Below, in pieces: positions 1,657 to 20,000 of a stretch of 20,000 bases of DNA. A model generated the notes under the pieces. It had not been told where the DNA came from and ran no database searches. It saw only the letters and a list, made by a program, of their open reading frames with translations. Within the stretch, counting starts at the first letter, position 1. Every line of letters starts with the position of its first letter. The position numbers and the translations under genes were made by a program. The stretch comes from Vermamoeba vermiformis (taxonomy: Eukaryota). Location of the stretch: assembly GCA_045837725.1 (NCBI GenBank), contig JBEWZL010000212.1:113943-133942 (forward strand), read 5' to 3'.

Positions 1657-4600
1657 TTAAGAAAAGAATTCGTTGTATATATCATCGTCTTCGATAACAA
1701 TTTGTTTCTCTGAACTTGCAGTCAAGTTGATCCTCAGTTCGGTACTTGGGATCTCAGCTGGGGTCTTCGACTCAGTGTTGGTGGTATTGGTTGGTTTAAT
1801 ATTTTGCAACCAACTACTCTTTTTCTTCTTCTGTTGTGCATTGACAAGCTCTCTCAGGCTCGATCTAGAATCCTTTTCTTTGTCGGTTTCTTTCGACTTT
1901 GCGTAATTCGTGTTCTTGTTGCTCGAGCCATTAATTTCATCAATATAGTCCTTATGAATAGAAATGACCGGTTTAGGCTTCTCCACTCGAATTTCTGTTC
2001 TATTTTTAGCTGATTTTTCCGCGCGTTCTAAGATCGGGGACTCTCGTTCTTTTTCTCGGACTTCTTTTTGCTTCTTATGCTTATCTTTAGGCTTCTCCTT
2101 AGGCTTATCTTTAGGCTTATCGGATTTTTCTTTAATTATCGGTGATTCTTTTGATTTTTGAACTGGCTTTTGGTCGATCGGCTTTTGTTTTTTCTTTAGT
2201 TTCTTTTCTTCAACTCTCTTTTCTTTCGGTTCATCAACAACATGTTCCGAATCCTTATTTCTTCGCGTCAAGTATGGATTACTATGATCAGCAACGCCAT
2301 TATCATTATTTTCAGGTACGGTTTTCAGCTTTTTCTTAGGACGCTCGTTTGAAGGTTCAGAAGTCGGGGCTTTCCTCTTCTATTAGCATATTAGTATCTT
2401 ATATTGATAGAATGGCTATTTAACTTTCAGTACCTTCGGTTTGTCTTCGATCGGCAGATCAAGCCGATTTTTATAATCACTCGGGTAAATGTACCGAGCA
2501 GGCTCCTCTTCAGGTGGCCATTTAATACTATTTAAGTTCGAGAACAACGTCTTATTGCCTGATCTCTTCCTCGCTACGTCGATAAATCTATTTACATTGC
2601 GTTTGAGGAACGGATGCGATTTCAATCTAAAGAAAAGTCGTTAAATAAGGTATCTTAGGGTTGCAAGCAAATATACTACGCTTACATATGAATCGAAGGA
2701 TTGGACTTCGCCATGGCTTGTTTGAATGAGCCCTTATTGTTAACCTCGATCTTGCTTAATAACGTTGCTAGATCTAGTTTCGGAGACGAGGTTTCTTTTA
2801 AACATGCACTACTCCATTCTTCTATCGATCTATATAGTCTTCCTTTATATTGGATTCCTTTCTTATTTACAAATGCTGAGAATAATAGTAATTAATTTCC
2901 GGAGCGTCGAATATTAAATAGGGTACGTACCAGATTGCTTATTCAGCGATAATTTATCGCCCAAGTTAATAACATATGTTATAGCACTCATGTCTAGCGA
3001 TAATACATGAATATGGTTCGGTGTACTGGATCTGATTTTATCCACTTTAATTCGCGGTCGATTTTCATTTAATAACGTCTTGTAATACGTAATCAAACTA
3101 AGCAAGATTCATTATTAAGTGTATTAAATATAAGTTATAATATTGTAGCTTACTTTCGATGTTTTAAGAGCGGTACGCTGAATTCAATATGATGCATAAA
3201 TCCTCTTCGTCCCCAACAATACAAAGTCCATCGCTAGCATATAAAATCGTTACTATATATTACTATATGACATACTTTTGTATTCTATACCTGAAGGATC
3301 TTTGTATTGTCTTGCGATCTTTTCTTCGGTGATCTTTTAGTGGATGTGGCTGCAGTCGTGGTACTTTGTTTGTTCGCGAAATATCCATCGACAATCCTAG
3401 TCTCATCGGTATACTTCTTATTCATATTCTCGAGGACTACTCGTCTTTTGCTACGACTGATCTGATTGTTATTGTTGTTCTCGGCAGATGCGCCGTTCGT
3501 GTTCGACGATTCTTCTGCGGTATTTGATTCGACTACTGTCTTCTTATTCTTGGATATATTACTATTTTCTGCTGGTTTTTTCTCGTTTTGCGGCAGTAGT
3601 TTCAGTTTGGTCTCCGGCTTACTGGGATTATTCTTCGCTTTCTTGTCCTTATCTTCCGTAATTTTGCCATCATTATTATTAATTTTGCTTTTTAGTTGGG
3701 CTGCGGCATTTTTTGACGACTTTTTGGTATCTTTTTTGGCGTTAGTACTAGGTTTTTTGACAGGCGATTGAAAATCATCGTCATCGTTGAATATGTCCTT
3801 GATAATAGGCTGTTTAATATTCATACCCGTAATATATACTTCTTGTGACTCGTTTGCAGGCTTGTCATTATTATCATCGCCATTTAAATCAATTAATGGT
3901 TCGTCAATTATCGGATCCGGCTGCTGACTTGGTCTTTCTTCAATATGCATAGAATTATTATTACTATTATTTGGTGTTGATCTGAGTCTAATTTTAGGTG
4001 TTTCTGCTGTTGTCTGAAGCGAATCTAATTCTTTCAAAAAATCGTTGTTTGACTGACTGTTGACCGAAGCTAATTCCTTAGTGATATTGTTTTCTTGAGA
4101 CTCTACTGGTACTTTGATATAAGGGGCGCCATCTATATCAGGTTCATCATATTGCTCATTGCCGTTGACATCTTGAGGCTGTTCAACGTGTTCGTCAAAG
4201 TGGTGGTTCGTAGGGGGATCCGGCTCCTCTTCAGTTTTAATATGAGCGTAGTATAATTGATCAAATACGCCTTCAATAATAATTTTTTCTTCTTTTTCTT
4301 CATGTCTATAATTTTCTTGCTTGATTTCTCGGTCTAGTACCGGATGTGGGATCGGATTTGCAATGTAAATTTCTTCATCGTCAGATTCGGCCGCTAAAGG
4401 TACTGCTCCTTCTTCTACATATATTTGAGCAACGGTTTCTTGTTTTATTCGAATATTATTGGCCTGTGGAATGGGGACAGACTGCGGTTCCGCCAAATTT
4501 TGATAGAGATCTTCGAATGAAGAAAATCTCGTTTTCTTTGCAGGGGCTTTATGCAAGCTAAATATAAATAAAATTAAAATGGTTGACGTGAGCAAAGAAA

Positions 4601-4816
4601 GCGCGGATGTGTTAAAAGAAATTAAATAATATATGAATCGAAAGCGTATTTCATTATTCACTATTATTCTAAATTCCGATAATTTCTAAAAATAATAAAA
4701 ATTATAATGGCAATAATTTAGCTCGTGCCATTATTTATTGCAAATGTTTGCACTTACAGCTTATCAATCTCTTGATCTATGAATTGAACAGTAGCACTAT
4801 CATACATATCGCCCAT
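1657..4816 (-). CDS. ~892-aa probable nuclear protein: acidic/Asn-rich disordered N-half, central globular region with a RAMA-like domain, Lys/Glu-rich C-terminal tail
   Basis: Exons 4816-4758, 4557-3291, 3233-3154, 3097-2931, 2875-2686, 2626-2434, 2379-1657 (2679 nt) splice in frame with canonical GT-AG sites. Starts MGDMYDSATVQFIDQEIDKLLHKAP. Contains a bipartite NLS-like KRKAPTSEPSNERPKKKLK and three psi-K-x-E motifs. The gene model is well supported; the domain identity is inference. Confidence 0.8.
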
Positions 4817-4961: not shown

Positions 4962-6920
4962 ATGCAGCATTCACATAGTCACGATCACGCGCACGGCCAC
5001 AGCCACAGTCATGATCACAGTCACGGACACGCTCATCCGCATCCGAATGATACTGACATGAGTCAGAGTAAGCTATAATATTATACTATACTATTGTAGC
5101 GAAATTGTTAATTTAGCTTTTTTTTTGGACCGGATCTTGTCAAGTTATCGGTTACAGTTCCACGGGCTTATTTAATTATTTTAATATTTTTTATTAGTGA
5201 CACAAGAAGAAATAGAAGCACTGGAGGAGCAAGAACATTTTTCTAATGTCCTGCAATCATTTTCTTATTATTATATTTACGCTTCAAAAACTTACACGCG
5301 CATGCACACTGATTGGACTACAATCCCTGATTCTCATAAGAAGTACGTATATATAGCATATTTATGCAATTTTTTGCCATTTTTTTCGTTTTAAACAAAA
5401 AGAAAATGCTTCGCGCAAGATCGAGTCAATTAATTTTGTTATTTTCTTAGATTAACGGCCGATCAACCTGAACGATTAAAAAAACTAGGCGCACTTGCTA
5501 AACAGAACGCAAAGTTCTTGGATAAAGTCATTGAGAACGATAGAATATTCGAGAATGAAAATTATGTACGTACTGACGCCTCTTAGGATAGTAATATTAT
5601 AATAGAGGCTTATAATATGTTCTATATAGGATTATTCAGGCAAGGCACAACAATTCAACGCAGTGGCTACGAGCGAATTTAATATGGACAAAGTTGTTAG
5701 TACTGTCAAACAATTCGTGCGTGAATGGAGCAAAGAGGTGTGCCTATAATACTCGTATATATGCCATATAATGCAGTATATTAATTTATATGAGTTTATT
5801 AGGGAGAAGAGGAAAGAAACAAGTGCTTTTTGCCGATCATGCAAGAGCTCGAAAAATATTTGCCAATCACCGATGAAACTCGATATAAGTATCGTGTAGT
5901 GTGTCCTGGTTCTGGACTGGGTCGATTGCCTTATGAGATTTGCAAACGAGGTACAGTACGGCAATTTTTCAATTCGTCCACTTTCCTTTTTAGGAAATTT
6001 CGTTACAAATGAATTTAACATAGCGGGAAACCGTTGGTGACATTATTGTACTATATATTATCGTAATTACTAATAATGTGTATGTAGGCTATGCTTGCCA
6101 AGGAAATGAGTTCTCGTACTTCATGTTGATCCCGTCCAACTTTATGCTCAACAGAACGACTAAGATTGATGAATATACGATCTATCCTTTCATTCATCAA
6201 GTAAGTGCATATATTTAATATTTTAAGCATCGTCTATTTGATGCTAACAAAAATGAATTTCGAAATTACGAGATCCAGCGCGGCTGCTACTTCGTATTTT
6301 TGGCTAATAATAAGATAAATTCTAATATTTGTAATATAGCTATCTAATATCAAGACATTTGCTGATCAAACTCGCCCAGTAACAATTCCAGACGTGTTGC
6401 CGTCAGATCTGCCTAAAGGCGCCGACTTCTCGTACAGCGCCGGTGAATTCGTACAAATATATAAGAGCCAAAAGGGTGAGTATAATAATATAAATTTATA
6501 TTGTATAGCATTGCTCATTTAATCGATAACTTTTAACAGAGAGTTGGGATGCGGTTTGTACTTGCTTTTTTATGGACACTGCAAACAATATTGTCGAGTA
6601 CGTGGAGACTATTCGCGATATATTAAAGCCCGGAGGTGTTTGGATCAATTTAGGTACGTTTAATATTTTGCTATGATATGATTAAGGTACATCCGCTAAC
6701 TTTTTTTTAAATTTTCTTAGGTCCTTTGCTGTATCATTATTCAGATATCCAAGGCGAGGTATCAATTGAGCTCACCAACGAGCAATTTATGCGCGTAGTG
6801 CGTGATCTTGGCTTTGAAATCAAGCAAGAAAGCACTGTGGATACGCGTTACACCTCCAACACTCGTTCAATGCTAGAGAGCTTGTATCATTGTAATTTCT
6901 TCACTGCTATTAAGAAATAA
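4962..6920 (+). CDS. CARNMT1: Carnosine N-methyltransferase (N2227-like, class I SAM-dependent histidine methyltransferase)
   Basis: Exons 4962-5067, 5198-5342, 5451-5565, 5630-5737, 5803-5950, 6088-6200, 6340-6475, 6540-6653, 6721-6920. Family motifs: [102 protein letters not shown]. Confidence 0.95.
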
Positions 6921-7053: not shown

Positions 7054-7296
7054 GTATGTAGTATTATTTCATAGTATGGGCCCAGTTATGCTCGTTACTC
7101 TCCAAAACAAATTTAGTCATCAGATCTCTGCTTCAGTTGTGCCCAAAAAATTAAAATAATTATAATCATGCAGTATTATTTGTAATTAATATTAATGGGC
7201 CAGTGGAACTAAAACCAATGCAGATAAAATCGAATTTACAAATTGATTTCTAATCTTAAATGTTAGTAGCATGAATCTAACTCTTATAACCATTAG
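7054..7296 (+). other. Probable 5' UTR intron of the exonuclease gene
   Basis: Strong donor AG|GTATGT at 7054, TCTAAC branch and CATTAG acceptor ending 7296, followed 22 nt later by the ATG at 7319. The upstream ATGs I checked hit stops quickly. Confidence 0.5.
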
Positions 7297-7318
7297 ATAT
7301 CATACAAAAATATTAAAT

Positions 7319-9544
7319 ATGGAGCCTGAAGAAGATTTACTCGATTTTATGGAAAAAGAGACTGGTGGATCAAGTTTCAAAAAATCAACGTCCTCTTTGA
7401 CTTTCCAAGAAAAACTAAAAGCAGATCAAGCCAAGGACTATGACAAAGAAAATGATTTATTGAATAAGACTAATTATGGCGAAGATTTTAACGACTTGGT
7501 GACGCAGATGGATCACGAGGGAGATCTTTTAGGCACGCAAGAAGGCATTCAACTGAATGATAGCGATGAAGAGAATATAGATGTCGATAATATAGAAAAT
7601 AAGGTGCATATTGACGAAGAAGAAAATGACGAGAACAAAATGGAGATCGAATCTACTTCCCCAAACAGATCTGCTCAAGAAACTTCGCAAAAAGGTCCTA
7701 ATAACGACGATAATACTCAAAATAGCAATAATATGACTAGCGGTGAAGAACGAATGGCGCATCTACTCGACGCACTTGACGATCTGAGTCAAGATATCAT
7801 TAGCACTCCAGCACCAGTCACTAAGCCTATTAATAGCCTTAATATTGAACCTGCAAATAACACAAGCAATATAACTAGTCAATATGTGCATAATAAGATC
7901 GAAGAAGATTTAGACATTGGTACTCCGTCAGCGAAGATAGATCCGACCCAAGTTAATCCGGACAACAACGATGCGAACAATAAGAAAGATAATAATATAG
8001 TGCCTAGTCAGTCTCAAAAATCGGGGTCAATTCAACAGCGCAAGATATTTAAAGCAAAATCAAAACGACCGCCAAATGCGATCGGTCCTGGATCTCAAGA
8101 CAGTCAAAATGAAGCTTTTTTGACAGACAATACGAGCGATAATATGAATACTAATGATAATAATGCAAATACTAATCGAAAGAAGTTCACTAAGCAAAGT
8201 AGTTCTGGCGCGATCCAAAACGCGACCAGCACACAAAATCAACCTGTAAATAATACTGTGAATACTTCTGATGTGAATAATAACAACAATACGAATAACA
8301 ACGACGGGGACAATATGGACGATGTTCCGCCGTCCACGCAATCACGTGCCTTGCCGATCTGGTTCTCATCGAAGACGTCGATTGACAAGCAAACAGTGAC
8401 CTCGACAAAAGACAGACAAAAACTCAAGTCAGAACTGCGCAATAGACTCATCGAGGGCTGGAAGAACGAAGGTTTTTCATTCACTTCAACGAGCTCCAGC
8501 ACGAGTTCTAGTGCCAACAAAGGTCCCTCTCAAGCAGTCCTCAATCGAGCTCCGTACTGCGAGATCACTGACGACATTACCACAATAGTCAAAGGCAGAG
8601 CTGTGATCTTTGATCTCGAGACTTCAGGCACGTGTCGACATTCTCGTGTCAAAGTGTCACAATAGCACTAACGACAATTACCAAATTTAGGTTTCTCCAA
8701 TGACGACAGCATCATCGAGATCGGTGCCGTGGAAGTTATTGACGGCTATAGAACGGGAGTGCTATTTCAATCGTACGCTCAGCCACGGAAAAGTACGTTA
8801 TTCTTTGAAAACTTCGTTCAGTGAATTAACCGTTCATGAAAACTTTGCAGTGGTCGACTACAGGGCCGAAGCCGTGCACTTAATTACACCTCAGCTGTTA
8901 CAGGCGAGTCCTCCTATTCAGGTACGGATTCTATTCGAAGTTTCAGTTTGACACGTGTCACTAACAGTTTGACACTTTTGTAGTTTGTAATGGCCAGCTT
9001 TTTACAATTCATCGGAAAATCACCCCTCATAGCCCACAATGCCCCGTTTGAGTATGTCATTACCAAATAAGAAAAGTCACGTGGTACTAACAAATCCGTC
9101 CAGTATGAGGTTTCTTATCAACGAGATTCAACGGTTAGATCTGAGCGATAAATTTGCCAAAAGATCTGTTTTTTGCACGCAGAGCTGGTTTAGGAAAAAA
9201 TATCCGAATCGGAGTTATTCACTGAACGATCTTGCCGTGCAGTTCAACATCAACTTGGACACGCGATTGACGCAGCATTCGGCACTAGTAGACGTAAGTA
9301 TAAATTTAGTTATCGAGTCTATATTAATCTATTTTAGGCTGAAATTTTGTCGCAAGTCATCACGTGCATGTTAATCAGTGAAAAAGTTCCAAAACAACGA
9401 ACTTTACCGGATGTGCCCTCAACTCAATCGAGCACGAACAAACCGAGCACGAAGCCTGCTGAAGATACTGATGGTCATAATAATAATAACATAACAAACA
9501 ATAATAATGGTACTGATAATGTCACGAGCAATCTTCATCAGTAA
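7319..9544 (+). CDS. ~648-aa protein: long acidic/Asn-rich disordered N-terminus plus a DnaQ (DNA Pol III epsilon)-like DEDDh 3'-5' exonuclease domain
   Basis: Exons 7319-8627, 8691-8792, 8851-8921, 8984-9051, 9104-9293, 9338-9544 (1947 nt). Motifs: ExoI VIFDLETSGFSNDDSIIEIGAVE, AEAVHLIT, ExoII LIAHNAPFDMRFL, ExoIII QHSALVDAEIL. All D-E-D-H-D catalytic positions are present. The first coding intron appears to be GC-AG. Confidence 0.9.
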
Positions 9545-9787: not shown

Positions 9788-11302
9788 TTAAAAAAGCTCC
9801 TCATCGTATTTGCGCGAGTGTTTCCAATCACTTCGCGAATAAGTTCGTTGCATGCCTCCACGACCAGTTTTAATCCACTTTAATCTCCTGACGCGCGGTA
9901 ACTTGTCAAACACCAGATCCACCACACTGCCGTTAATAATATCGGTGGGCAGTGCTGGGTTTTCTAGATCCAGCTCAGTCAATGACGTTAACTTTGCAAG
10001 ACTTTCAATAGGCTCTCCTAGCACGTCACCGCTGTACTTCAAATATTCCAAATTAGGTAAGCGCATCAAGTACGGCAATTCGCTGGCCCAATTGACGCGT
10101 GAAAATCGTTTCAAGTTCTTCAGATGCGAGACGTAGCCTGTCGGAGATACATCCGAATCTACCGACAAACTTGTGAGGTTCACTAACCGCGAAATTTCGT
10201 TCAGTTTTTCCGCGTGTTCGTCGGTGAAGAGGTCGACGTCCAACTCGAGACTATGGAGCCATACCAAATTAGGCAATACTGTCACAAAGTCTAGTGCGAT
10301 GTCGTCGTATGAAGTGAATGCGATACTTTCAAGATGTCGCAATCTCGTTAAATCTCCGCTCTCAATCGGGACTGGTCGGCCCTCACAATTGACCGACAAC
10401 ATTTTGAGATTGGTCATGTGAGCTATTCTGTTCTTAGGGCCACTGAATCCAATGTGCAAGTACGTCAAATTAGATGCATATTTAAGCGGCAGTAGTGTCG
10501 CGTGATTGGTCCACGTAAAACTCAATTCGTTCAATTGCGACGAGATCTTCCACATCTCTGAGCAATCTGTGAACATTATTTGTTAGCTCATAGCACTATA
10601 ATAGTATCTTAGTATTATTACTATAATTTTAGACTAATTGTAATGATGTTTAACGTCTCTTTTGTACCGCGTACTGGATGTACCGACAAATTTAATTTGA
10701 TTATTACCTGTTTCAAATGGTGCATTAATTGATAACGAAGTCAAGTGTGAGAAGCCAGGAAAGAATACGTCCAAGTTTGGCGTTTTGGTGGTTAAGAGTG
10801 AGATCTTCTCCAAGTACGTCATCTGCTTCAAGATGTTGAAGTAAGGTGCAACAGTTGGATTGGTAATGTCAGATGGATCCTCGGTATGAACAATAATTTC
10901 AACACGAAGGCGCTTTAAGTTTGTTAATAGGAGCATTTCTTCGGTCAAGCCATAAAACCACCAGATCGCATCGTACTCAAAAAAATTCAAACTTAATTCC
11001 TCAAGGTTTGTCAGCTTAGATATTAATTGTCTTGACGTAAGATGTCGCAATTCAGCATATTTGATCAGACCGTAAGCTATAGCATTCCATTTTCTATTTA
11101 CAGTTGTAAGACTGCGAAAAAAAAATTATTAAAATTAATGCAGCGATTATTTTTTATAATAGGTGCAATATAATATTATATAGAGGTCTCAGATTTCAAA
11201 TAGAATTTTTGTAAATATTTTTACTTACGTGATCAAGTCTTCAGTCCTCAACCGGCGAAAAACCTCTTGCTGACAATCGGCAGGAAGACTGTTGAACTCC
11301 AT
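9788..11302 (-). CDS. F-box / leucine-rich-repeat protein (~418 aa)
   Basis: Exons 11302-11229, 11111-10708, 10566-9788 (1257 nt). N-terminal F-box MEFNSLPADCQQEVFRRLRTEDLITLTTVNRKWNAIA, then repeated LxxLxxLxL units (LTNLEELSL, LTNLKRLRV, MTNLKMLSV, LVNLTSLSV, LTSLTELDL). Confidence 0.9.
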
Positions 11303-11759
11303 TACTATAATTAGTCACTACAATTGACTGTTGGACGCTGGGATTGTGTCGTGCTATCGCGGTTTAAAATTAACAGTCTTTAACTGATTACATCGATCGT
11401 TGAGTTGCCTGATCAGGCCCATTGAGCAACATAACCTTCTGTTTGATTATCCTAATAGATGTTGACGAGTTCATAGCACAGCAAACTGGAGACGAAGCTA
11501 ACAACTTTGAAGTGGCTCTAAATTTTAGCTTGCTTTGGTTTGGTTTGGGTAAGGCACGTGTTATCATGCTTATAACGTATTCGATGAAACAATGCCCTGC
11601 GCCAATAAATAAAGGCTGCCGGGCGAGCTTTCAGTTTCGCGAAAACGAAATACGAAGTTTCCGCGGAATTTCAATGAGTAGTTTGAGCAGGGACCAGGCT
11701 AGTATAAAAGTCAACGTTAATCTATCTCAACAACTCCTTATTATACTTTAAGCTTGGGA

Positions 11760-13373
11760 ATGAGTGAGTTGCCGTATGAGATCGTGTCGCACATCTTCGG
11801 CATCTTGGATGTACGATCTCTAGCCCAAGCAAGCGCGACTTGTCACGCGTGGAGAGAAGCATCCAATGACCAAAGACTATGGAAGGCTATATTTCAGGAA
11901 TCTGTAAGTACTACAAATAATTGAAGATCTGCTGGCGAATTAACGGTTCTCGTTTACTACCCATTTCAATAGTTTATCGCTCTGGTCATTTTATTAATTT
12001 TACCTGTTAAATGTAGTACTCTGAAGACGTCTTTGGTAACGAATTAGTCGAGAAGGTAAATAAAATAAAATATTTTTTCGATCTGCAATTGTTTTAAAAC
12101 AAGAAAGCGTTATTATTTATCAACTCAATCAATTGTAGCTAACACTATGTTATATATGACAGGAGGAGTGGAAGAAAGCGTGCAAATTGTCCTACAAGAT
12201 CCGCTCCGCTTACTACGGATCGTATATTCCAGACTATCGCATCAAATTCTCGCCTGAAGATGTTGCTTGGAACGAACAAAACGTCCACGTGCGAGTATTC
12301 AAACGAGCGCACTTCAAACAGGCACCTGTCATTTTATACCCCGTAAGTATAAAATATCTCGGCAGATCCACCTGGCATAATTTAACTTGAACACAGACTA
12401 ATGATTGGTTATTATTATAGATGGAAAAAACAGTTGCCAATACTCTTCCCGATAATGACGCTGTGCGAACGTGGATCGAAGGAAAAATGAAGCTGCATAA
12501 CCCTGAATTCTGCAAAATATTAGGCTGGACAGGCGACGTATGTACTAATAGTAGGATAATATTACCGTTTCCATTATCAGAAATGGAAGCTGGATCCGGA
12601 CCTCACATTTGACACGTGTCAATTTATTTAACTTTACTTTGTTTTAGGACGAAGAAAAATACTTGGTGATTGAAAATTGTCAACGAGGAATCGTTAAACA
12701 TGCCTCGAATAAGTCATTAACGAGTTGGCAGTTTTATTTCTCGTACGCTCTGCAGATGGTCGATATTTTCATGAAGGCACATGAAGTCATGCCAGAACAG
12801 AAATATTTTTGTTTTAGATTGGAAGATTTTTATCTCACTTCCGAGATTAAATTGAAATTGAATCTCTCAGGTACGCTTCGAACAGAAAAAAAATTGCCAT
12901 CGTACTGACATAAAATTCTTAGATTGGTTATTTGCTTGGCTGTCGCTCTTTGTTATCAACTATTCTGATGACTACAGACCAAACATTTCACGAAGTAATT
13001 TCCCGCCTGAATTGGTTACCGTTGAAGGATTGAAAATTGAGAAGCAGACAGTCGATGTTTGGGCCATTGCCAAGAACTTACAACACCTCGTATGCTCACA
13101 TAAAATATATCATACTATAGTGCCCGACACTAACGATAGTTTCTATAGATGAAACAGCTGTTTGTAGCACCACGTTACTGGTTCTCGTACCCCGAAGTGT
13201 TCCCTCAAGATTGTCCCGCAGAATTCACCGAATTCATGAAAAAATGCACCGCTCGCGAGCCACAAGATAGACCTAAGCTTAGCGAACTCAAGCATATGTT
13301 AGAAACTATAGCATATAAGAACTCGACTCTTACCTCACCCAATGTCAGCGGATCAACCCTATCAAAATCTTAA
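11760..13373 (+). CDS. F-box protein fused to a degenerate protein-kinase-fold (pseudokinase) domain (~364 aa)
   Basis: Exons 11760-11903, 12017-12055, 12163-12342, 12421-12537, 12648-12870, 12923-13089, 13149-13373 (1095 nt). F-box MSELPYEIVSHIFGILDVRSLAQASATCHAWREASNDQRLWK. Kinase-like segments: MKLHNPEFCKILGW..KYLVIENC, NFPPEL, VDVWAIA, DCPAEFTEFMKKCTAREPQDRPKLSELKHMLE. Confidence 0.85.
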
Positions 13374-13444: not shown

Positions 13445-15680
13445 CTATTTTTCAGGCCAAGGTTTACTTGGACTACTAAGTTCCCATCGACCATCGATTA
13501 ATCGTTCGTAAAATAAAAACGCATGGCCGTCGATGAACTGACCCTTAGTACGGTTATTTCTATAAGCATAATAACTATACTCGAGACTTCGCGTGAATGA
13601 GAATGACTGGTAGCCTTGCATATTCGTTGTTTTTTTCAGCAGTCTTGACGCGTAGTTATTCCGCAGTTGTTTTTGCTTGACAGGCGAGCCCATTACTTTC
13701 ATTAAGAATATGATGCCATATCTAAGGAATAATTAGAGTTTGAATCGAAAGGTGGATCCAGATCTGCTTACCTTTCCGTTGCACTAATATTAAAAAGAAA
13801 TGAACTGATATTATCCAATGTTCCGACCTTATTGCCGATGAACTCAATCAGTTTTGACGAGCTAACGGTCTCTTCCTAAAAAGGAAATATCGCTAGTTAG
13901 CTCGGCATTGCTAAGTATAGCGGTATTATAAGTACCTGAATATGACATTTGTGCTCTAATTGATATATCGCTTGAATTCTAACGCGCTTATCGATCAATC
14001 TTTGTTGGAACGAGATCACCCGCACTCCTTTCCCAGTTCTCACCGCCAAATCTCCATTACTGAGCTAAAAAAACAATCATTAACCTTAAAATAGTACTTT
14101 AATATATTACTATTACCTCATTGAACTCCGATACAGATTCATACAGATTAATGCCGTTGATCAGCTTGCCCGAATTCAGATCGATGAAGAACACTTTGCC
14201 GTCGCTAGAACACACCAACATATCGTGATATATGGTTGCGTTGTTAGGCTAAAAATAATAAAATTAATTATAAATGCTTTGAAGAACTTGCTACGTACGT
14301 AAGCAACAGGAATTTTGAGGGTCGCGAGTGATTTGGTGTTAATATCGTACACGAGCATTTTTTTCTCGTAAATAAACATTACGACCTAATTGTACGCATT
14401 AGTGAGTATAGTTATTGCATTTCGTGTAAAATTGACTTACTTTGTCGGATCCAGCCGTAATGCTGTGCACAACCTCGTTGCTGATGATGACATGTTCTTC
14501 TTTCGTTAACAAATTCATGCACATCACTTTGCAGGGATGAAAAGGCTGCAGTATATTAGTCATATAATTTAAAATATTTTAGCTACGCACTTGGTAATAA
14601 ATGAAATAATGTTGGTAAAGATCCACGATGCGGATCTTCTTAGCTTCGAGAATTTGGTGCATTAACTCCATAGAATGAATATTCCATATGCCATATACCG
14701 ATCCAGCACTAAATAACAACATTTAGTGGCTGCGTAAAAGCTTTGGATCTGTTGACTTCTTACTTGTTGTACCAATCATCGTAGCCACGTTGAAAGCAAA
14801 TGGCAACAAACGGTGATTTGTTGTCGCTGTTTTTTATCACGTGATCGACGTTGCCTTTCATTACACCACCAAGTTCTTTCATTTCGGGCGTGGCACAGAC
14901 CGATTGAAAGCTCAAATCACGAAGCCTTGCTGGTGGCGCCGTCGACTTTTCATCGAGTTAGTTAAGTTTGGTAATGTAGTATCGCTACTTACTGATCCGA
15001 ACATCATATTGCCCGACGTTAGAAATAAGAATGACTCCTTGTACTAACAAAAATGTAATTAGTAAGGCTTAGGCGGTGACTCAAAGTGGTACGTACAGGA
15101 ATGGATTCTTCGGTAATAACATTGACTACATGCGTATCTTTATCATCTAATATGGTACACCAATCTCCATTAAGCGAGGTGCACGTACTAGTACTTGTTT
15201 TTGCGTCCTTGGAGGAAACGGAACGGACAACGCATCTGAATTCCATTTGAGTCGTTGAACAATTAAAAATTAAAATCAATAATACGTACTTAGATTGTTT
15301 AAGATTATGCCTGACAATAAATTTGCGAAGGACAAGGTGCTTCCAGTCGAGTTTCGCATCTGGTCTGTAGGCAGGGTGCGGAGTGGTTGCAAAGTAAAGC
15401 GCCTACCATGACAGAATTTTAACAAATTTTAATGTCACAAATCGATTAATATAAAAATAAGCGAATAAAAGAAGAGGATAAATAATAAAAATTAATATAT
15501 AATAATTAATTCAATTCAATAATTCCGGTGTCGAAAGAAGTCAATTACCTTCCATAATCCAGGATCACACGTGCTACCTCTCCAATTTGAACAAACTAAT
15601 GAGTTCCGCAGAACAGAACGCACGGATCCAAATCTGAATATCAAAGAAAGTATTTCAGGTGGCAGGTTGCTCCAATCCAT
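13445..15680 (-). CDS. F-box protein with a beta-strand-rich (propeller-like) C-terminal region (~522 aa, 12 exons)
   Basis: Exons 15680-15549, 15402-15290, 15235-15097, 15043-14993, 14945-14764, 14708-14591, 14545-14441, 14385-14299, 14248-14117, 14064-13936, 13875-13772, 13721-13445 (1569 nt), all in frame. F-box MDWSNLPPEILSLIFRFGSVRSVLRNSLVCSNWRGSTCDPGLWK. Blade-like segments YGIWNIHS, VMCMNLLTKE, MLVYDINTKS, GKVFFIDLNSGK. Confidence 0.85.
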
Positions 15681-15786
15681 GGACGGTTTTGTGAGTTCAT
15701 CAAAACTAACTAATATATATTGGTAAATTTAGGGCGCTTGTGGTTTTATTGTTGGTCTTTGGGGCGAGATTTCAATCGAGCGGGAA

Positions 15787-15872: not shown

Positions 15873-17067
15873 TTGCCACAAAAAAAATTGCACAAAACTG
15901 TAATTTTGCGACTCGGATTACAAATTTACGCAATCGCCTGTTAAGCTCTTCAGACGCATATAACTGCTTTTTTTAAACTATGATAGCTATTAGTTGCCAA
16001 GTCAATCATACCTGATTGCTTGAAAATGCTAATACGCACGTAGATCAAATTCTGAAATCGCATCTCGAAAACGAGATAGCTGCCACCATGTAAAGCTCAA
16101 ACAAGACTCAGTGCATGAAAATGCCCTGCTGTGGTTCGGGTCACTCAATGTTCGAGATTTGAATTCATCCAACACTCTTTGGACCGCTTTTTCGGATGAT
16201 CTGATCAGGGTCAACCAGATCCGTTGACAGGGAAGCGTTTTCTCTTGATATGCTTTAATTTTGGGACACTATGCTTTGTGACATAAGTTCCACGGATTTC
16301 TACCGTCACAGTGCGAAGATTTATGCACTTGAACGGGCTGTCGCAAGTTTGTTTTGCAAAAAAAATTGTGATTCTAGGCCCATCGCAAGATTTTGTGACA
16401 GGCATTTTCGCACATTCCGCCTGTGCACAAAAATGTTGTGCACCGGGGCCTCAAAGAGTTTTTAAGGTTAAACTCCTTGGAAAAGTGCTTCAAGCGTTAA
16501 TTTTGGTTGTTTAGGCGATACTTTTGTTTAAAGATTAGTTCCACGACGAATGGAATTCCCTTGTTGTTGGAAAGTTCAAGATGTAAGCATCCACTTTGCG
16601 ACTCCTCTCTCGCTCTGGTTTCAAGTTGTGGAAATGTTTTCTTCAATCGTAATTCGGCACGCACAGTGTTTTGGGAGGGGTGTATGATATGTACAATGCA
16701 ATTGTGAGGTTCTACACCTCTTCTCAACAGCAGAAACTCGCGATCCAAACTTGCGACCCAATTTTGCGACAATGTTTCGAGAAGAGGTTTTGCAAATGAT
16801 TTAAACGTGAAAAAAAGTAAAGCACACAATTTAGTGAAATTTAGGGACGCAGATGAAATTTAACGGCCAAATCCGAAGTGATTAAAGCAGATCTGGCTTA
16901 ATTTGGTTGCATAGCCACAGCAGTTGAGCAAGGCCATTTCTGGAGCTTCTTAAACGATGTTGTGAAGGTAAAATTATAATTCAGTGCTTGGGATATAGTG
17001 AAAAACTCTTGCGAAGATCCGCTCAATTTCGCGACAATTTTTTGCGACTTTGTGTATGTGTAAATTT

Positions 17068-17123
17068 TTTTTTGCGCATGCCGTGAGAAATTTCTGGTGC
17101 GGAGCGCGGAGCCGCTGCCTGGG
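17068..17123. repeat. Right arm of the imperfect inverted repeat, ending 68 nt upstream of the histone H4 ATG
   Basis: Its reverse complement is cccaggcagcggctccgcgctccgcaccagaaatttctcacggcatgcgcaaaaaa, 82% identical to 15818-15872. Confidence 0.85.
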
Positions 17124-17191
17124 GTTTTTGTTGATTTTTTCTTGGAAGTGATTTTCAAAACAGATCGATATAAAGGAACACAACGAACAAC

Positions 17192-17797
17192 ATGTCTGGT
17201 CGTGGTAAGGGAGGTAAAGGACTTGGTATGGGTGGTGCCAAAAGACACAGAAGAGTCCTACGTGACAACATCCAAGGTATCACTAAGCCTGCTCTTAAGC
17301 GTATTGCAAGAAGGTAATTAATTATTTCTATAATCTACTACTCTTAATAGTTACGTGCTTATTATTTTATGGACTCAATTATAAACGATTCAGTTAAATT
17401 GAATTATTATTCTAATAATTAAGCAACAATTTATTTGGACTTTTTACCGTGCAATCTGCGATAATTATTTACATACATAATATCATATGCTTAGCTAATA
17501 TTCAATGTGATGTTCGTTTGTTGCTTTTGTCGCACTAATGTGGATTTATGTCTTAGAGCTGGCGTTAAACGCTTCAGCGGTCTTATCTACGAGGAGTTAC
17601 GCGGCGTTATGAAGATCTTTATGGAGAATTTAATTCGTGATGCTGTTACTTACACAGGTAAGCCGGTATTGCGATCGCACAACCAAATCTTACCACCTTT
17701 CTTTCTAGAACACGGCAGAAGAAAGACAGTCACTACTACCGATGTTGTGTACGCTCTTAGAAAGCAAGGCATTACCTTGTTTGGCTTTGGTGCTTAG
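17192..17797 (+). CDS. H4: Histone H4, divergent/variant, two introns
   Basis: Exons 17192-17313, 17557-17657, 17709-17797 give [103 protein letters not shown]. Canonical length; 81/102 identical to canonical animal H4 by manual comparison. Confidence 0.97.
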
Positions 17798-18021
17798 ATT
17801 CAGTTGTAAAAAAAGATCTGTCTCAAGTAGCTGTAATCGGTTATTTGGACGAATTTATCCTTATAGTTTGCAGTATATAAACAATATCTTAGTGTGATAG
17901 TTCTTTTATGAATTTTCGGTTTATTTACTACAAAGGAGGTTCGGGTTGCAAAAACCAAAGAGCTACATCTCGTAGGAAGTACTCAAAATCTTGCAACATT
18001 ACACTCCTTAGCTGAACATAT

Positions 18022-19649
<1,628 letters not shown>

Positions 19650-20000
19650 TCAAAGGCACTTACTATTGTTATGTGGTGTGTTCAGAAGCTTGCTTCGATA
19701 AAAAGAAGCCAAAACTTTGTGGCTTTCTTGATGCCCGCCACGTGGGTTTTTTGTTAACGAAGCGAAATTTTAGTGAAATGCACCAGCGTTAATGAAACAA
19801 TGCAAAACGATTCAAAGTCTGCACCAATCTTACAATAGAACAGGAATTCCATCGGTTGACTAATGAAGCAAGTTAGTGATCATCGGGCCAACGGATGTGT
19901 ATCCGCCTTCGACTCTTCTAGATCAATGAGATTTCATTATTACCCGTTGATAGCGCTAAGTCCAATGCACTGAGTCGTACTAAGGCAACTTTGGGAGCAG

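Follow-up and report, generated by a model that had tools for sequence, protein, structure and literature searches.

The window, a stretch of 20,000 nucleotides from Vermamoeba vermiformis (Amoebozoa, Tubulinea), contains a gene encoding a variant of histone H4, which stands alone between an F-box gene and a GAPDH gene (Table 1). Its coding sequence begins with the ATG at 17192, ends with the TAG at 17795-97 and, once spliced, comprises 312 nt, that is, 103 codons and a stop, with no internal stop codon. The GAPDH gene, whose five exons were delimited by RNA joints, has 340 codons and is arranged tail to tail with the H4 variant, their 3' ends being a few tens of bases apart. Its 176-residue exon is 99% identical to a metatranscriptome protein, whose 90% cluster includes a EukProt protein of V. 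vermiformis that matches the window at 171 of 175 residues, as expected for this species or a very close relative. Reading of the sequence revealed a TATAAAG motif at 17171-17177, approximately 15 to 21 bases upstream of the H4 variant ATG. Downstream of the gene, no histone 3' stem-loop was detected by Rfam, even at E values up to 10, and no Rfam family was matched.

Table 1. Features of the H4 variant gene and of the genes surrounding it (positions in the window)
Feature	Position	Strand	Description
Exon 1	17192-17313	+	Met, residues 1-39 and first two bases of codon R40; N-terminal tail with M12 and R20
Intron 1	17314-17556	+	243 nt, GT..AG (GTAATT..TCTTAG), phase 2, in codon R40
Exon 2	17557-17657	+	Last base of codon 40 to residue 73 and first base of E74; loop L1 and helix alpha-2 of the histone fold
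Intron 2	17658-17708	+	51 nt, GT..AG (GTAAGC..TTCTAG), phase 1, in codon E74
Exon 3	17709-17797	+	Residues 74-102 and TAG; A76G, A83T, M84T, K91R/R92K swap, R95I, Y98F, G102A
3' untranslated region	17798-17897	+	At least to the end of the X5 transcript contig; tail to tail with GAPDH
GAPDH gene	17990-19509	-	Five exons
Carnosine N-methyltransferase gene (CARME, PF07942)	5803-6917	+	Multi-exon; Pfam matches over five ORF pieces
Leucine-rich-repeat gene and two F-box domains	9791-11125 (-), 11721-11921 (+), 15519-15728 (-)		Pfam matches
Long Asn/Lys/Ser-rich low-complexity ORFs	1657-2379, 3285-4685, 7247-8665		No Pfam match

To follow the gene in sequencing data, the raw RNA runs X21 and X23, the DNA contig set X1 and the contig set X5 were placed on positions 16900 to 19700 of the window at 80% likeness. 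The RNA status of X5 is a guess, and we took it as RNA because its contig is spliced. Removal of intron 1 (joint 17311>17555, skipping 243 nt) was seen in 15 reads of X21 and 28 reads of X23, and that of intron 2 (joint 17655>17707, skipping 51 nt) in 1 and 6 reads, respectively. Furthermore, a single 457-nt contig of X5 spans all three exons with both introns removed. The first-pass annotation, made from the letters alone, had described the frame and splice sites as intact, and the observation of both introns as RNA joints bears this out. Intron 2 is itself in frame and free of stop codons; were it retained, the protein would gain 17 residues between helices alpha-2 and alpha-3. This open frame looks accidental, since the stretch is not conserved as protein in two relatives, P0124 and P0126.

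No further H4 copy was found within the 20-kb window. Similarly, a Pfam search of 136 of the 162 ORF pieces of at least 48 aa (the 26 pieces over the GAPDH region were left out) returned no histone domain; since this search missed even the known H4 exon pieces, its negative result says nothing about additional histone genes in the window. The assignment to H4 rests instead on matches to PDB chains and on tblastn, the separate exon pieces being unscored by Pfam. When compared by phmmer with all PDB chains, the pieces matched histone H4 only, with E values of 1.4e-18 for exon 1 and 1.7e-22 for exons 2 and 3. The protein is 102 residues long after the initiator Met, and its tail and histone fold align without gaps to PDB H4 chains. 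Residues 1 to 11 and 13 to 19 are those of chain 1eqz_D, including the K16-R-H-R basic patch, and K5, K8, K16, R17-H18-R19, R45 and K79 are all present. The C terminus, F-G-F-G-A, is full length.

H4 is the most conserved of the core histones, and 21 substitutions relative to canonical H4 had been counted at first sight. We could confirm 20 of them in alignments with H4 sequences; the remaining one, K77R, presupposes that animal H4 carries a lysine at this position. Within residues 1 to 39, the phmmer alignments to PDB H4 gave K12M, K20R, I34L, R35K and L37I, so that K12M and K20R are indeed the only changes in the first 33 residues, as initially claimed. A glycine is also replaced at position 41 (G41A; the PDB H4 chains have GG at chain positions 42 and 43). 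I46F, T54L, L58M, L62M and V65L follow in residues 42 to 73, and A76G, A83T, M84T, K91R, R92K, R95I and Y98F in residues 74 to 101. The core and C-terminal changes listed at the outset (I46F, T54L, M84T, the K91R/R92K swap, R95I and Y98F) are thus all found in the PDB alignments. G102A is based on a tblastn match to P0125, a 108-aa atypical H4-like isoform from Lolium, and V60I was confirmed against chain 1eqz_D, which has a valine at this position. When chain 8kcb_H, from what we take to be a plant nucleosome, was used instead, the number of differences dropped to 19, because this ordinary H4 already harbors I60 and R77. K77R, initially presented as a feature of the variant, and likewise V60I, are therefore ordinary H4 states outside animals.

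In the window, codon 12 reads ATG (17228-30) and codon 20 reads AGA (17252-54), and the PDB H4 chains carry a lysine at position 20. The T at 17229, which makes codon 12 a methionine codon, is present in a 130-nt DNA unitig of X1 that covers 17189 to 17318 without a single difference from the window, codons 12 and 20 included, although the window may have been assembled from this very sample, in which case the agreement is not independent. The RNA data gave a different picture for the first base of this codon. At 17228, A was replaced by T, giving TTG (Leu), in 31 of 57 reads of X21, in 16 of 49 reads of X23 and over the entire depth of the X5 contig (110.7 of 110.7), compared to none of the 75.6 depth in the X1 DNA. 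On variant-type reads of the independent RNA data, codon 12 was only ever ATG or TTG, and a lysine codon was never seen. As 17228 is the sole exon 1 difference between the window and the near-identical X5 transcript, codon 20 must be AGA in X5 as well, and no change at codon 20 was found among the differences listed for X21 and X23. Conservation may therefore bear on the loss of the lysine at position 12 rather than on the methionine. The prediction that this H4 can carry neither K12 acetylation nor K20 methylation holds, since methionine or leucine at position 12 and arginine at position 20 are chemically unable to bear either mark.

We then considered the abundance of the transcript, using summed depth as a crude measure of expression. 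The bins of H4 variant exons 2 and 3 had a depth of 13 to 21 in X21, against about 236 to 273 for GAPDH, and of 21 to 48 in X23, against about 402 to 480; in X5, the values were 110.7 and 562.6. This corresponds to approximately 5 to 11% of GAPDH depth in X21 and X23 and 20% in X5, and transcription of the gene thus comes to within an order of magnitude of GAPDH. With RNA joints at both introns and read depth in three RNA data sets, it is clearly not silent. The same presence in all three data sets, at roughly 5 to 20% of GAPDH depth, does not establish the stage-specific expression that had been proposed. Small word shares with runs from soil, root, biofilm and water carry no weight as evidence of either habitat or expression.

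The RNA of X21 and X23 comes from a strain that has diverged from that of the window. Indeed, most placed reads are 90 to 99% alike to it, and two of the three non-synonymous GAPDH differences listed, both A to S (codons 215 and 237), bring the protein closer to the EukProt V. vermiformis sequence. Reads of this diverged strain also display an alternative GAPDH joint, 18962>19175, that carries 5 additional letters, as well as an insertion of 3 letters at 19226.

A notable share of the reads placed on exon 1 did not belong to the variant. At 17293, in codon A33, 114 reads of X21 and 111 reads of X23 leave the window and extend further, by a median of 61 and 50 letters, with a consensus agreement of 0.97 and 0.98, respectively. 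Translated by eye, the consensus beyond this point reads I-R-R-L-A-R-R-G-G-V, which corresponds to residues 34 to 43 of PDB H4, with no intron there. Conversely, 49 reads of X21 and 48 reads of X23 enter at 17230 from a G-L-G-K context, that is, with the canonical Lys12. The depth of the exon 1 bin in X21 (approximately 92, against 13 to 21 for exons 2 and 3) fits with canonical H4 reads cross-matching exon 1. The ten codons of the consensus (including CGT, TTG, GCT, GGT, GTC and ATT) are first- or second-choice codons of the GAPDH gene in the window, whereas the codon bias of the H4 variant is weak, with AGA for 8 of 14 arginines and a GC3 of 0.39 compared to 0.63 in GAPDH. The evidence for expression of a canonical H4 alongside the variant is thus good, if not conclusive, since another eukaryote present in the cultures could in principle be the source of these reads.

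Since the window and the RNA strain differ, the H4 coding sequence could be examined for selection. There are at least 17 differences between the two, and among those listed, 14 are synonymous and 3 non-synonymous, namely G56C, I60M and a partial M12L. The coding sequence offers 73.3 synonymous and 235.7 non-synonymous sites, so that pN/pS is about 0.07 among the differences listed; those listed for GAPDH were likewise split into 14 synonymous and 3 non-synonymous. The H4 variant therefore is under constraint, and neutral evolution, one of the outcomes that would have spoken against a genuine variant, does not describe it. Three non-synonymous changes in 102 codons are nevertheless fast for an H4, and constraint may be relaxed in part of the protein.

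We also searched for relatives of the gene in other genomes. P0124 and P0126 are prokaryote-style ORF fragments from other assemblies that span exon 2 and continue into intron 2. Both keep the variant-specific residues F46, L54, M58, M62 and L65 but diverge from the window in the intron; position 60 is V or Q in these fragments, and position 56 is C in P0126. They were two of the three matches obtained, out of four candidates, with the read-through of exons 2 and 3, a search that returned no annotated full-length orthologue. A search with exon 1 among longer proteins was dominated by fused multi-copy H4 gene models and was uninformative as to orthologues. Scanning metagenomes with an alignment of the H4 variant matched 596 stretches, and the matches listed fell into two loci on soil or environmental metagenome contigs, L001:135-640 and L002:223-603. 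Both were rejected as orthologues, being other strongly divergent H4-like genes: the one in L001 seems interrupted and has a G-V-M-K-V-F-M-E-N-L stretch in common with the H4 variant, and L002 has two H4-like segments in tandem. In prokaryote genome contigs, 407 stretches matched, none of which was confirmed.

Signs of additional copies were seen in the sequencing data as well. X1 contains a second variant-type copy or allele, with signs at 17603, 17661, 17753 and 17798. It has a T at 17603 (Cys56) in 40.3 of 130.5 depth, and it differs in intron 2 and in the 3' flank, where contigs leave the window within the intron and just after the stop. One X1 unitig encodes Cys in place of Tyr88. In X5, a second, rarer variant-type spliced transcript was detected at 17555, at a depth of 8.37 compared to 110.7. 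The end of its exon 1, translated by eye, reads T-K-P-A-F-K-R-L-A-R, with F34 in place of L34 and L37 in place of I37. The H4 variant thus forms a small family in this species complex, conserved but not frozen.

Taken together, these data make it likely that the locus encodes a functional, selectively constrained H4 sequence variant, expressed from a solitary intron-bearing gene alongside canonical H4. The same sequence could also be explained by divergence of the lineage, the gene encoding either the sole H4 type of the organism or one of several equivalent bulk copies. Protist H4s can depart from the animal sequence, R77 and I60 turned out to be ordinary states, and protein searches retrieved neither an annotated full-length orthologue nor a canonical H4 of the organism. 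The reads that leave exon 1 at codon A33 are nonetheless difficult to reconcile with this explanation, since they carry on as canonical residues 34 to 43 in one consistent sequence written in preferred codons, while the gene itself is weakly codon biased and solitary between the F-box gene and GAPDH (the Pfam histone scan being a weak test of the latter). The presence of canonical-type H4 reads in X21 and X23 fits better with a variant than with lineage divergence, which we consider unlikely; the gene is probably a variant that exists beside canonical H4 and not the only H4 of the lineage. A further explanation would be a young H4 duplicate that is transcribed and redundant and is heading for decay. 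The protein does evolve much faster than canonical H4, as illustrated by M12L, G56C and I60M between strains and by V or Q at position 60 in the relatives, and deletion of the H4 paralogue H4E in an ascomycete had no detectable phenotype in the part of the study available (PMC10878826). A drifting copy would not, however, be expected to display the low pN/pS and the same split of differences as GAPDH, an intact frame with two intact splice sites, abundant mRNA in three data sets and variant-specific residues shared with relatives whose introns have diverged, and we regard such drift as rather improbable.

The methionine at position 12 had itself been proposed to be the point of the gene, either as a dominant K-to-M inhibitor or as a second start giving a tail-truncated H4. 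Both the window and the DNA run X1 do carry the ATG at 17228-30, and K-to-M histones are known to inhibit SET-domain enzymes. K12 of H4, on the other hand, is known to be acetylated rather than methylated. In addition, leucine encoded by TTG in the X5 transcript and in a substantial part of the X21 and X23 reads shows that Met12 is not conserved and that the internal ATG is not maintained, which argues against both proposals. The oncohistone-like inhibitor, for which methionine would have to be fixed at the substrate lysine, was rejected on these grounds, and the second start is weakened by the very same reads; we judge a function of Met12 as such to be very improbable. H3.3 K27M is mentioned in the available part of a review of histone variants (PMC11742582).

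If the locus indeed encodes a functional variant expressed beside canonical H4, as we favor, its sequence suggests how the protein might act. It preserves an ungapped histone fold, R45, K79 and the basic patch (RHRR, with R in place of K20), and hence all that H4 requires for folding with H3 and for DNA binding, so that it would be expected to pair with H3 and to enter nucleosomes. There, it would supply a tail harboring K5, K8 and K16 that could be neither acetylated at position 12 nor methylated at position 20; at position 12, the absence of the lysine would matter and not the methionine. The C-terminal strand, by which H4 docks H2A-H2B, is altered (K91R/R92K, R95I, Y98F and G102A), and the tetramer-dimer interface would thereby be changed, residues 91, 92, 95, 98 and 102 lying where H4 meets H2A-H2B. 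K5/K12 diacetylation marks newly made H4, and factors of replication and repair read the methylation state of K20. The likely outcome would thus be nucleosomes that escape K20-methylation and K12-acetylation read-outs. The gene may be of the replacement type, which would be expressed outside S phase: it has introns, no 3' stem-loop was found, and no second H4 lies in the 20-kb window. A replacement-type H4 whose nucleosomes are blind to K12 and K20 signalling and whose dimer interface is altered is the mode of action that we tentatively favor, as a possibility well short of an even chance. A bolder version would see in it a modification-blind H4, whose nucleosomes could be marked neither as newly deposited (K12ac, unmethylated K20) nor as old (K20me). 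Its reshaped C-terminal strand would pair with one particular H2A-H2B, and the amoeba would employ this dedicated H4 to shield a defined portion of its genome, or a dormant stage like the cyst, from replication-coupled and damage-coupled H4K20 read-outs. We advance this version as speculation with little probability of being correct in full.

A conserved, well-expressed H4 paralogue whose tail is canonical except for two modification sites represents a natural experiment on the roles of K12 and K20. It would make the fate of chromatin that cannot undergo H4K20 methylation testable without engineering multi-copy histone genes. V. vermiformis can be cultured and serves in the laboratory as host for several giant viruses; some of these viruses supply histones of their own, according to the accessible portion of one report (PMC8383183). 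In the paper on clandestinovirus, viral and host histones are compared, and the text examined does not describe a host H4 variant. Similarly, literature on H4 variants in amoebae or in Vermamoeba, as far as the available texts extend, contained no description of a Vermamoeba H4 variant.

Compared to canonical H4 (chains 1eqz_D and 8kcb_H), the protein has the same length, the same tail except for positions 12 and 20, and an ungapped fold, but it lacks the lysines at these two positions, its C-terminal docking strand is changed, and its gene has introns and a weak codon bias. The gene layout resembles that of the Drosophila His4r-type replication-independent H4 genes, which are solitary, contain introns and lack the histone 3' stem-loop. 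The His4r protein, however, is identical to canonical H4, whereas the protein described here differs from it.

Human H4G (H4.7) is, in the part of the review at our disposal, a sequence variant with approximately 80 to 85% identity to canonical H4 and with changes at H2A-H2B and H3-H4 contacts; it lacks five C-terminal residues, is located in a histone cluster and forms no stable nucleosomes in vitro, the changes in its C-terminal area going along with unstable nucleosomes (PMC11742582). Both proteins are true H4 sequence variants, which does not imply a common origin. Identity with H4G was rejected, since the H4 variant is full length (F-G-F-G-A) and solitary, with GAPDH and F-box genes as neighbors, while H4G, going by the same portion of text, is truncated, clustered and hominid. 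The fungal H4E (hheA; Flipphi et al. 2024) is, in the sections available, a conserved, intron-bearing and expressed H4 paralogue found beside canonical H4, with an altered Lys/Arg content of its tails, longer and highly divergent N- and C-terminal tails and a multi-intron structure of its own (PMC10878826). The H4 variant, with 102 residues, a near-canonical tail and two introns at other positions (R40 and E74), was not considered identical to H4E as it is described there. The trypanosomatid H4.V of T. cruzi, a single-copy H4 variant gene that lies apart from the canonical arrays in the excerpt available (PMC13052989), belongs to another lineage. In its available part, one review calls H4G the only known H4 variant (PMC11742582). 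H4.V (PMC13052989) and H4E (PMC10878826), as the available parts of both papers describe them, add to the known H4 variants. Overall, the Vermamoeba gene adds to this rare class of H4 sequence variants.
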